A DNA stretch of 37,827 bases from Chlorobiales bacterium (GCA_014380515.1 JACMJS010000306.1:1-37827); one strand, 5' to 3'. Positions 25,254-36,823 are shown, counted from the stretch's first letter. The notes: generated by a model from the sequence alone, not told the origin. Program-made: numbers and translations.

Positions 25254-26633
25254 TCAACGGACGGTGCGGGACTTGCTGTTTTGATACTTGACAATCCACA
25301 GACCTTGATTCTTGTCGGTGATGTAAATGAATCCGCGTCTATCAACCAATACATCTTCGGTTTGCAAGGCGAGTTTATCCTTCGGCATCGGTCCGAATCT
25401 TTTGGTGGGTTGAGGCGGCATAAAAAAGCCGACTTCAACCGGCTTTCTCCGGTTCGAGACGTTGTAAATCCGCAGTCCGGCGTTGAAATGAGCGAAGTAA
25501 AACAAATCACCCTGTTTCTCGACTGCCGGATTATGCTGTAAGTGATTGAAGTTGTGCGGTCCTGACCAGCCGCCTTTGGTAAAAAAATCGGGCGTTGAAT
25601 CCTCTGGCGGCGGCGATGGTTGCGGAAAAAGCGACAGCAAAAACGGTTGTGCCGGATTCGAAATATCGATTATCGAAGCGTGGTGAAGCGGTCCTTTGCC
25701 ATATGAAACGTCTTCGGAATTTGCAAAAGCAATGTTCTTTTCAGGTATCGGCAAAACGCCATGAACGCCAAAACGCGGATGAAACGGCGGACTGAAATCA
25801 AGCCGCCCGATTTGCCTCGGCTGAGTAACATCGCTGACATCGAGCACGATCATTCCGGCTGAACCATATGGCAAATACGCAAGATTTCCCACCACATATG
25901 GCGGACCGTGAAGCGATACATCAGCATCTGTGCCGCAAATGCTGTGGTCGTGGATTTGAGTTTGGCGACTGCTGTCGACGTTTCGTGCATCGGCTCCTAA
26001 ATCTAACTTTTCGCCGCCCGCCGTGTGCTGTCCTTTTACATGCCAGCGTCCCACTTCGCGCGGATTGGCAGGATTACTAATGTCAACAATGACATAAATG
26101 TTACCTTCGTAGCCGGGCATTCCGGCGGCCAAGTGCATATATCGCCCGCCCGAATAAAAATTGCGATGCGTCCCGCTTCCGCCGGTGCGAAACTGCCCGA
26201 CTTGTTTTGGATTTATCGGGTCAGCGATGTTCCAAATAATCACGCCTTCGTCAAAAGGCTTGCCGTCATCGCCGCCGAAACCGGGCAGAATCTTTTCTAA
26301 CGAAGTAATCATTATGTCGCCGGAAAGTTCGATCTGGCCTGTGAAAGTATTTTCGGGTCCTGCAACAAACTTAACCACACGTGGTTTTTCCGGGTCGGTT
26401 ACATCAACAACGCTCCAGCCGCGATGCCAAAAATGCGCGGTATAGAGATACCAACGTCCTCGATGTTCACGAATGGACATTTTGAAAGCCGGTTTGCCGT
26501 CCAAATCCGTGTATCCGACAGTTTGTACGTCGTTTGCAATCGAACCTTTCGGAAATTGCTGAGCGGTGGCTGTTACAACCAAGCCAAACACTAAGCTCAT
26601 TAACGCGACCATACCCAGCACTATTATTTTCAT
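25254..26633 (-). CDS. Secreted LVIVD-repeat beta-propeller protein
   Basis: Signal peptide; repeats VVDVTDPEKP, IVDISNPANPREVG, VLDVSDVTQP, IIDISNPAQP, AGLRIYNVSN. Confidence 0.85.
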   Translation of the reverse strand: MKIIVLGMVALMSLVFGLVVTATAQQFPKGSIANDVQTVGYTDLDGKPAFKMSIREHRGRWYLYTAHFWHRGWSVVDVTDPEKPRVVKFVAGPENTFTGQIELSGDIMITSLEKILPGFGGDDGKPFDEGVIIWNIADPINPKQVGQFRTGGSGTHRNFYSGGRYMHLAAGMPGYEGNIYVIVDISNPANPREVGRWHVKGQHTAGGEKLDLGADARNVDSSRQTQIHDHSICGTDADVSLHGPPYVVGNLAYLPYGSAGMIVLDVSDVTQPRQIGRLDFSPPFHPRFGVHGVLPIPEKNIAFANSEDVSYGKGPLHHASIIDISNPAQPFLLSLFPQPSPPPEDSTPDFFTKGGWSGPHNFNHLQHNPAVEKQGDLFYFAHFNAGLRIYNVSNRRKPVEVGFFMPPQPTKRFGPMPKDKLALQTEDVLVDRRGFIYITDKNQGLWIVKYQNSKSRTVR

Positions 26634-26799
26634 CTGTAGGTTTTAAAAAGTTCGGATAGAAAAAGAGGGCTAACGGCTGAAATGACATAAGCCGTGATCG
26701 TCTTACGAAGTTCAATCAGTATGGCTCATGGGATTAAGACGGTTGAGCATATGGGTTGCGGGAAGCATTTCGACAGATCGAACTTTGATTGCTCGAAAT

Positions 26800-26822
26800 A
26801 AAAAAGGGGCCGAAGCCCCTTT
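26800..26822 (-). terminator. Rho-independent terminator of the putative sRNA
   Basis: GGGGC-UUCG-GCCCC followed by U6. Confidence 0.85.
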
Positions 26823-26886
26823 CTGTAACGGCAGAAGTCCCCCACTTCTTCTGCCAACACCCCACAAGGCGTGTGGTGTTTTACAT
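26800..26886 (-). ncRNA. Putative ~87-nt small RNA: two stem-loops plus intrinsic terminator (Chlorobi-1-like architecture)
   Basis: Minus strand: UGUAA, hairpin AACACC..GGUGUU, hairpin GGCAGAAG..CUUCUGCC, UUACA, then AAAGGGGC-UUCG-GCCCCUUUUUU. Promoter directly upstream. Confidence 0.65.
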
Positions 26887-26892
26887 GACACT

Positions 26893-26921
26893 AAGATAGA
26901 CGCTCGAAATGAACTTTGCAA
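26893..26921 (-). promoter_or_regulatory. Promoter TTGCAA-N17-TATCTT for the putative sRNA
   Basis: -35 at 26916-26921, exact 17-bp spacer, -10 at 26893-26898 (TATCTTAG is also 1 mismatch from TAnnTTTG). Predicted start A at 26886. Confidence 0.6.
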
Positions 26922-26970
26922 GAGTTCGTGAAAAAAAACTTAATCTTTTTTTAATCTGCCGACTGTGCGG

Positions 26971-27849
26971 TCATTTTTCCCGTCCCGCGGTCGCTGTTTT
27001 TTCCAAAAATGCCAGCGTCAGCTGTACAAATTCTTCCGGTCGTTCGACCATCGGCACGTGGCCGCAGCGTGAAATCAACTGTAGTTCCGAGTTCGGAATC
27101 TCGCGGTGCGCGACTGCCGCATATTTTGTGGCGACGAAACGGTCGCTATCGCCCCACAGAATCAAGACGGGTAATTTCAATTCGCCGAGCCGCACACGCA
27201 AACCGGTACGCCGCAAATCCAGATGCTTGTAGTTGCGGTTGAGTGCCATCATTGCGTTGAAGTTCGCTTGATCGCGCACCATCGAAAGGTTGCGTTGAAA
27301 GTGTTCGTCGGTAATGTGCGCGGGATCGAAGTAAACCGATTCCATCGTCTTGCGGACGAATGATTCACGGCCAACCACTTTGTTAAGCAAATGCCGCACG
27401 CCCCACAAACTTGCCGCGCTGATGATCATCGGGACGTATAGAAATCCGTCCGTGTTCGTAACGACGAGCTTCGAAAGCACATTCGGATAAAGCACCGACA
27501 TCGCCAGCAGAATTTTGCCGCCCATCGAATGCCCGACGGCATATACTTTTTTTCCTGCGCCGGTCGCATTCATCTTTTCTAAAAACTCTACCAAGAGTTT
27601 GCTGAAGAGTTCAAGGCTGTAGGGCGCGTCCGTCGGTTTGTCCGATGCACCGAACCCGACTAGATCAATCGCCAAGACGCGATACCGCTTGGCAAACGCC
27701 GGCATCACTTTCTGATACGACAGCAGCGACGCCGAAAAGCCATGCACCAACAAAAGCGTTTCATCGCCTTCGCCCAGTTCCGCGTAGTGATGCCGGTAGC
27801 CGGAAAGCGTGATGAACTTTGATTGCGTGTTCGTTAAGGTTTCAGTCAT
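26971..27849 (-). CDS. Alpha/beta fold hydrolase
   Basis: LVHGF, DLVGFG, nucleophile GHSMGG, WGDSD, CGH. Confidence 0.9.
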   Translation of the reverse strand: MTETLTNTQSKFITLSGYRHHYAELGEGDETLLLVHGFSASLLSYQKVMPAFAKRYRVLAIDLVGFGASDKPTDAPYSLELFSKLLVEFLEKMNATGAGKKVYAVGHSMGGKILLAMSVLYPNVLSKLVVTNTDGFLYVPMIISAASLWGVRHLLNKVVGRESFVRKTMESVYFDPAHITDEHFQRNLSMVRDQANFNAMMALNRNYKHLDLRRTGLRVRLGELKLPVLILWGDSDRFVATKYAAVAHREIPNSELQLISRCGHVPMVERPEEFVQLTLAFLEKTATAGREK

Positions 27850-36580: not shown

Positions 36581-36823
36581 TCGAACCCCTCGTCCCGCTT
36601 GGCGGCGGGACACTCCCCTTTCGCAAAGGGGAGATTGATGAAGAGGCGTTCGACAAAAAATTGACGGTTGCACTTCGGCTTTTTCAAATCGCTTCGTCCT
36701 TCGAATCTTTTCTTTTGCTTTTACACTTCTCCCTTTACCAAAGATCTTTGCTTTTGCTTTTGCTTTTACACATCTCCCTTTGGTAAAGGGAGATGTCCCG
36801 CCGAAGCGGGACAGAGGGTTCGA
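36581..36823. repeat. Inverted pair of family-B REPs (REPIN/MITE-like, 243 bp)
   Basis: 36581-36635 (+) and 36771-36823 (-) both begin TCGAACCC; internal partial copy TCTCCCTTTACCAAAG and TGCTTT tandem repeats. Confidence 0.8.

Follow-up and report, generated by a model that had tools for sequence, protein, structure and literature searches.

The 337-nt minus-strand gap that separates an alpha/beta-hydrolase gene (26971-27849) from a gene for an LVIVD-repeat protein (25254-26633), part of a 37,827-nt stretch of Chlorobiales DNA that we refer to in its entirety as the window, raises the question of whether a small RNA gene of its own lies there, or whether its structured sequence belongs to one of the two flanking genes. 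An earlier note on this DNA had proposed a self-contained structured RNA gene, had offered the Chlorobi-1 motif as its possible identity and a riboswitch or attenuator acting on the LVIVD gene as an alternative, and had named an Rfam search, covariation among homologues and the consistency of their gene neighbourhoods as ways to decide. We conclude, with considerable confidence, that the locus holds a stand-alone structured RNA gene of about 87 nt, a diverged homologue of Chlorobi-1 whose product would act in trans.

Predicted architecture of the RNA

The elements on which the earlier proposal was built are all present on the minus strand. They include the TTGCAA and TATCTT hexamers with their 17-nt spacing, two hairpins, the closing helix UGUAA/UUACA and a terminator with a UUCG loop (Table 1), and the 167-bp distance given for the LVIVD gene agrees with an ORF start at 26633, about 167 nt 3′ of the RNA end. 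We set the RNA start at the A at 26886, 7 nt past the −10 box, and its end in the U tract. The minimum free energy (MFE) fold of nucleotides 26890-26795 yields the same architecture at −38.8 kcal/mol (z = −3.4), a stability that none of 200 shuffled sequences attained. The RNA would fold as a compact three-way junction in which a 5-bp closing helix (P0), beginning at the second transcribed base, carries two 8-bp hairpins (P1 and P2). The P0 helix of the window is A/U-rich and weak (−3.7 kcal/mol). The sequence GUGGGG does occur in both hairpins, as had been remarked, and this duplication is incidental because the P1 copy lies in a stem arm that is variable in relatives.

Table 1. Features of the RNA locus, in coordinates of the window
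Feature	Position	Strand	Basis and remarks
T8 run (UP-element-like)	26931..26938	−	Read directly; 10-17 nt 5′ of the −35 box; putative function
−35 box TTGCAA	26916..26921	−	Read directly
−10 box TATCTT	26893..26898	−	Read directly; 17-nt spacer to the −35 box
Predicted primary transcript, about 87 nt	26800..26886	−	Start and end both predicted
P0 closing helix, 5′ strand UGUAA	26881..26885	−	MFE fold; position covaries in f1-f3
P0 closing helix, 3′ strand UUACA	26824..26828	−	MFE fold and alignment-free helix test
Hairpin P1, loop GCCUU (26870-26866), one A.G mismatch	26856..26880	−	Rfam alignment
Hairpin P2, loop AAGUGGGGGA (26847-26838) with invariant UGGGGGA	26830..26855	−	Inverted-repeat detection (perfect 8-bp stem, 26855-26848 / 26837-26830) and Rfam alignment
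Intrinsic terminator, 8-bp stem, UUCG loop, U6	26800..26822	−	Inverted repeat and fold; arms 26822-26815 / 26810-26803, six U at 26805-26800
Near-identity island (RNA and promoter) in a soil-metagenome relative	26789..26957	−	Contig X3 record 9

The RNA is a diverged copy of Chlorobi-1

A scan of the whole window against Rfam at the gathering scores returned zero matches. When the region 26600-27050 was scanned in E-value mode, Chlorobi-1 (RF01696) matched nucleotides 26882-26814 on the minus strand over 67 of 67 model positions, with a score of 40.9 bits and an E-value of 3.7e-10 (7e-10 genome-wide), and the next best family in this region had an E-value of 0.14 or worse. The default scan was empty because 40.9 bits lie below the gathering score of 50, which is a curation cut-off and not a biological feature. 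This match is the sole copy in the 3.57-Mb, 420-contig genome from which the window derives.

The Chlorobi-1 motif was described in Weinberg et al. 2010 (PMC2864571), which was the only source returned by a literature search on the motif; a search on Chlorobaculum sRNAs gave nothing relevant. Like the described motif, the window RNA consists of two hairpins directly followed by an intrinsic terminator, and the Rfam match reaches the 5′ arm of this terminator. The first hairpin of about 8 bp (26878-26858) carries the tetra- or pentaloop containing GCC that is found in Chlorobi-1, here GCCUU, and in both RNAs loop 1 is closed by A-U and C-G pairs. Loop 2, for which the consensus is AAUGGGGGaC, reads AAGUGGGGGA and then C in the window, with UGGGGGAC equal to the consensus and the core UGGGGGA(C) identical. 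Both are stand-alone genes from the same bacterial order. Indeed, an alpha-glucan phosphorylase encoded in the window has its best relatives, at 55-59% identity, among proteins titled Chlorobiaceae, Chlorobium, Prosthecochloris or Chlorobaculum.

To describe the distribution of the RNA, we denote the families of the order f1 to f4. The genome of the window is the only member of f1, the families f1-f3 are deep-branching, and f4 carries the canonical copies. RF01696 was run over 61 genomes; E ≤ 0.01 was reached in 45 of them, and the gathering score was exceeded in 29. Copies from f4 score 50-90 bits and often form tandem arrays, whereas those from f2 and f3 mostly score 24-53 bits and are window-like. 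At the gathering score, which none of the f2 copies and few of the f3 copies reach, RF01696 finds none of 12 f2 genomes and one of three f3 genomes, and it misses the genome of the window.

We built a covariance model, R1, from nine deep-branching f1-f3 sequences with the closing helix included. R1 scores the window RNA at 60.7 bits and, among 138 genomes of the order, identifies the RNA in 79, comprising 12/12 from f2, 3/3 from f3 and 63/122 from f4 in addition to the genome of the window. Chlorobi-1 is thereby detected in every f1-f3 genome searched (16/16) and is not detected in about half of the f4 genomes searched. When R1 was applied to genomes sampled evenly across the phylum, each of the 25 with a match came from this order, and a search of 114 sampled genomes from other families of the phylum gave zero matches. 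The 50-90-bit copies are likewise from the same order. The two models retrieve each other's copies: R1, derived from f1-f3 only, recovers canonical copies from f4 with scores of up to 51.5 bits, and RF01696 recovers f1-f3 copies.

As the earlier note had considered possible, then, the RNA is a genuine but known kind of element, a diverged copy of the described Chlorobi-1. It gives the sole meaningful Rfam match, albeit below the cut-off, this match spans the full model, and it has covarying homologues across the order. The window RNA differs from the Rfam consensus and the f4 copies in its P0 helix, which makes the three-way junction and which they lack. Furthermore, loop 2 of window-type RNAs begins with AAG, AUG or GUG, compared with AAU in the Chlorobi-1 consensus, and the window RNA is a single copy, whereas canonical Chlorobi-1 RNAs often occur in arrays. 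The main value of the find lies in annotation and family curation, since the current Rfam model misses the Chlorobi-1 RNAs of the deep-branching families and a model that includes P0 recovers all 16.

Covariation supports both hairpins and, in deep-branching families, the closing helix

The covariation set comprised 30 f1-f3 matches, 25 of them distinct. Among the distinct sequences, 96.7% of pair cells hold a standard pair, versus 72.0% in column shuffles, although pair counts for f1-f3 and f4 alike were made on model-fitted alignments, which favours structure. Changes on both sides were seen for 18 of 21 pairs, none of 500 shuffles reached any of five measures, and control alignments with slid 3′ partners gave at most 47% pairing. 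The paired fraction amounts to 99.5% for P1, 100% for P2 and 86.6% for P0, with double changes in seven of eight P1 pairs and six of eight P2 pairs. Thus, covariation of the homologues, one of the checks named at the outset, is strong for P1 and P2, and it extends to P0 in f1-f3, where the closing helix read from the window sequence shows compensatory changes in relatives.

These alignments also bear on whether the locus encodes a small protein, since a mechanical ORF list contains an ORF of 69 aa at 26712-26921 (minus strand) and another of 67 aa at 26728-26931 (plus strand). The homologues carry single-base indels in both loops and in the junction, their stem substitutions are compensatory, and no conserved reading frame was seen across the homologue alignments. 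Moreover, the minus-strand ORF would begin inside the −35 box. We consider the chance that the region encodes a small protein to be negligible.

The P0 helix required separate treatment. In the model-based alignment the P0 of the window is shifted out of register, since only two A nucleotides separate it from P1, compared with 3-5 nt in relatives, and the assignment of this particular helix therefore derives from the fold. Because the model-fitted alignment favours structure and had misplaced the window P0, we used an alignment-free test in which the 13 nt before P1 were folded against the 13 nt after P2 for each sequence. A helix of 5-10 bp formed in 19 of 24 distinct f1-f3 sequences, the five sequences without it being a short paralogue, and the mean P0 energy for f1-f3 was −6.9 kcal/mol, versus −3.85 with swapped and −2.95 with shuffled partners. 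Seven P0 sequences were observed, namely GCAAC/GUUGC, GCAGU/ACUGC, GUAAC/GUUAC, GAUGA/UCAUC, GCAGA(A)/(U)UCUGC, GUGGC/GCCAC and, in the window, UGUAA/UUACA.

The same test applied to 62 distinct f4 sequences showed no excess (−1.54 versus −1.24 swapped and −1.59 shuffled). P0 as a general feature of f4 was rejected on this basis, in that P0 is 69.5% paired in the model-fitted f4 alignment and yet the alignment-free excess is absent. Given the excess in f1-f3, we regard P0 as real: it characterizes the deep-branching families and is absent from the Chlorobiaceae-type copies behind the Rfam model, and it constitutes a structural feature outside the published motif.

Promoter-like sites and terminators accompany the RNA in relatives

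A TTGCAA or TTGACA hexamer at a spacing of 16-17 nt is present in f2 and f3 relatives. One relative (G016) has hexamers and spacing identical to those of the window, and another (G014) has TTGCAA-17-TAGAAT. A promoter match of at least 8/12 positions that ends 3-14 nt before the model start was found in 15 of 27 distinct f1-f3 upstream regions versus 17% of shuffles, and six of the seven upstream regions that lack any match belong to second modules located directly behind a first. Most promoter-bearing homologues also have a run of 6-8 T upstream at a similar distance. A hairpin and U tract follow all homologous copies, with stem sequences that are unrelated to one another.

The case for these transcription signals rests on the relatives because generic scanning of the window listed neither signal. 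The window promoter has eight of 12 consensus matches and was not listed by a generic promoter scan that needs nine. Over 26000-27600 the same scan also omitted the clear minus-strand terminator at 26822-26800, which seemingly fits its stated rule for terminators. On the evidence of the homologues, transcription would start at the RNA's own sigma-70-type promoter (T tract, TTGCAA, 17 nt, TATCTT) and end at its own terminator.

A different origin for the transcript would be the upstream hydrolase operon, of which the element could be the 3′ untranslated region and terminator with no separate gene involved. No terminator was found between the hydrolase stop (26971) and the RNA element, and the RNA terminator therefore probably also halts hydrolase read-through, which would end at 26800. 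Such read-through is compatible with a separate promoter and is no substitute for it. The homologues, however, are located behind genes of unrelated kinds and are often divergent to the gene upstream, NurA being one example, and the promoter-like site is kept 3-14 nt before the structure. Sequence conservation in a close relative, described next, likewise separates the promoter from the hydrolase gene. An origin as a mere operon end is thus quite improbable.

Two soil metagenome runs supplied DNA contigs from relatives. The contig of a close relative (X3 record 9) shows six differences from the window over 26789-26990, and because five of these lie at 26958-26985, there is at most one change in the 169 nt of 26789-26957. 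The promoter is therefore as conserved in this relative as the RNA itself, in contrast to the end of the hydrolase gene. The LVIVD gene start has 23 differences in 164 nt (about 14%; record 8), and the spacer 26664-26788 has diverged too far to be aligned with the relative, a contrast that we read as a sign of selection on the RNA and its promoter. In a contig from the second run (X2 record 6), the alignment is confined to 26823-26886, where 10 of 64 nt differ (84% identical), and the flanks are unlike. As these flanks still show a TATCTT box in the same place and a different terminator, the contig evidently represents another diverged copy.

Gene neighbourhoods are not conserved

We searched for the window's neighbours beside the homologues by tblastn with six proteins, the LVIVD protein included, and found none beside any homologue. 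The genes that do flank the homologues are mutually unrelated, encoding TauE, a citrate-transporter family protein, a LuxR-type response regulator, a PfkB kinase, a methyltransferase and RecX, as well as thioredoxin, OmpA, an S1-domain protein, HerA and an M17 peptidase. At six or more of the deep-branching loci, the gene downstream is convergent to the RNA. Homologues are hence not consistently located 5′ of related genes.

Two recurrent arrangements exist elsewhere in the order. The main f4 arrays occupy one conserved gap, where they follow a PAD_porph-family (agmatine-deiminase-like) gene and are convergent to the malate dehydrogenase gene (mdh), in 37 of 44 f4 loci, a set (L002-L029 and L060-L075) in which six loci occur twice. 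A short paralogue without P0 is divergent to a NurA-domain gene in five f3/f2 genomes (L030/L055, L031/L051, L032/L053, L036/L037, L040), and one f2 genome has a P0-type copy with a convergent HerA-like gene. The window locus shows neither the NurA nor the PAD_porph/mdh pattern. Relatives with arrays have up to six matches per genome. In f2 relatives, two Chlorobi-1 modules are found 4 to about 33 nt apart (1501-1562 and 1567-1628 in L052, 1501-1563 and 1597-1659 in L047, and also L045, L048, L049 and L050). Because only the first module of such a pair has a promoter-like site, the pairs are taken to be two-module transcripts.

These neighbourhoods speak directly to the proposal that the RNA is a cis-acting leader, a three-way-junction riboswitch or attenuator controlling the LVIVD gene 167 nt downstream. 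The RNA has the same orientation as that gene, and a closed three-way junction followed by a terminator would suit such a role. Riboswitches of the purine type are three-way junctions in which a closing helix carries two hairpins, and the window-type RNA resembles them in having a closing helix and two hairpins whose stems share a conserved length of 8 bp. It is unlike them in its junction strands, which are only 1-5 nt long, and in having neither a conserved downstream gene nor an expression platform: with the terminator lying clear of the junction, no alternative antiterminator pairing is apparent. A fixed set of controlled genes is also lacking, given that downstream genes are unrelated and are convergent in the deep-branching loci noted above and in the mdh-facing f4 arrays. 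Weinberg et al. 2010 (PMC2864571) class Chlorobi-1 as neither cis-regulatory nor a switch. The leader proposal is therefore largely refuted and very improbable.

Because promoter position and terminator are conserved while neighbours are not, and because downstream genes are often convergent, we interpret the RNA as a stand-alone sRNA and not as a riboswitch. The promoter-like site, together with unrelated and often convergent neighbours, suggests independent transcription with no fixed downstream gene family, and it is on these features and the terminators that the original proposal of a self-contained small RNA gene finds its support.

Flanking repeats probably do not mark an insertion

The direct repeat GCTCGAAAT occurs at 26791-26799 and 26902-26910, as the earlier note had reported, and could be viewed as the target duplication of a small mobile insertion. 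A second 8-mer, GAACTTTG, is shared by the flanks as well, and the conserved island in the soil-metagenome relative ends at 26789, beside the repeat. However, 2% of shuffles yield a 9-mer common to such flanks, and 59 of 1016 window segment pairs with the same spacing (5.8%) share one as well. The two shared words exchange places between one side and the other, which is not the pattern of a target duplication, and one GCTCGAAAT copy sits within the functional unit, between the −35 and −10 boxes. Since the repeat is within chance expectation, its words are swapped, one copy belongs to the promoter, the RNA occurs once in the genome and the homologues are free of flanking repeats, we do not read it as an insertion scar. 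Nor was any sequence seen whose homology runs unbroken across the site in the absence of the RNA. The repeat itself is thus real, and the insertion that it had been taken to hint at has very little probability.

Directly past the terminator lies a 33-nt near-palindrome (ATTTCGA...TCGAAAT, 26767-26799), a half-site of which is also present in the promoter spacer. Since the alignment to the close relative ends at 26789, this near-palindrome is not conserved there.

Loop 2 is invariant and may recognize a conserved partner

The loop 2 sequence UGGGGGA, closed by a G-C pair, is invariant in 14/14 and 25/25 deep-branching sequences and is present in nearly all f4 sequences. Both loops vary little, although some f4 copies swap loop 1 for GAAA or GCAA and keep loop 2. 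A kissing interaction between the loops, considered as a reason for the conservation of loop 2, fails on this account, as loop 1 is replaced while loop 2 is kept; both this interaction and anti-Shine-Dalgarno mimicry were judged by eye only. The RNA would act in trans, with the UGGGGGA loop of hairpin 2 as the putative recognition surface.

Two general modes of action can be envisaged. In the first, the RNA binds or titrates a conserved partner, probably a protein, which we put forward tentatively, at somewhat less than an even chance. The second, in which the RNA base-pairs with C-rich RNA sites or engages mRNAs by seed pairing, seems somewhat less likely. We favour binding or titration over pairing because of the arrays, the two-module transcripts, the failure to detect Hfq or CsrA, and the rarity of loop complements and their location away from ribosome-binding sites.

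Searches of 41 genomes from the order, that of the window included, detected neither Hfq (PF17209) nor CsrA (PF02599), and their controls were positive. An Hfq-dependent base-pairing sRNA was therefore rejected as a candidate, as was a CsrA sponge of the CsrB/RsmZ type, to which the presence of one G5A loop per module also runs counter. A link to the Chlorobi-RRM motif and RRM proteins was rejected too, that motif being present in 15/15 from f4 versus 0/16 from f1-f3 and having a consensus without a G-rich loop.

The 7-mer complementary to loop 2 has 41 sites on both strands of the window's genome versus about 520 expected, the antisense of the RNA itself being counted. None of the perfect complements lies convincingly at a ribosome-binding site, as judged from crude, ORF-derived gene starts, so that weaker or imperfectly matching targets may exist. 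One site is in tRNA-Thr, one is just after tRNA-Cys and several are in the ends of repeat elements. Runs of C5/G5 number 939 in this genome versus about 9500 expected from base composition, or about one tenth. As a side observation, CCTCC stands at 0.24 of expectation in the same genome, and A5 runs are five-fold over-represented.

Multi-copy "sibling" and protein-titrating sRNAs are known from other bacteria in the form of Qrr, LhrC and CsrB/RsmZ. The Chlorobi-1 relatives resemble these RNAs in their tandem arrays and in short hairpin units that have an invariant apical-loop motif and a terminator of their own, and differ in their loop motif, which consists of a G5 run in place of GGA or UCCC. 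For an order in which Hfq and CsrA were not detected, a multi-copy sRNA with an invariant loop offers a reasonable entry to post-transcriptional regulation.

A more specific reading combines these observations. The three-way junction would be the ancestral form of Chlorobi-1, the RNA would be an abundant decoy, and UGGGGGA would recognize the avoided C5 tracts as a near-unique address. We regard this reading as speculative and unlikely. Its targets may be AUCCCCC ends of MITE-like elements or an order-specific RNA-binding protein that replaces Hfq or CsrA.

Several repeats were recorded along the way. One family in the window's genome has ends of the form ATCCCCC-(TAA/CAG)-CCCCCTTTGACAAGGGGG, with 38 ends that form MITE-like inverted pairs about 80-200 nt apart (for example C103:7837/7920, C118:5808/5936, C124:3002/3142 and C316:6676/6825); the first bases of these ends are partly complementary to the G-rich loop of the RNA. 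The 13-mer CAAAGTCCCCCAA occurs at the unrelated sites C233:693 and C383:629 and could form 10 bp with loop 2 and the adjoining stem of the window RNA, although its occurrence at both may be due to chance. One of these sites lies 3 nt past tRNA-Cys. Finally, the palindromic repeat TCCCCTTTGNCAAAGGGGA, with conserved flanks, has 297 matches on both strands of the genome with up to four mismatches, corresponding to about 150 or more places. It is found in the window at 36614-36631, just past an ORF for a 1417-aa histidine kinase, and this abundant repeat probably contributes to the fragmented assembly.
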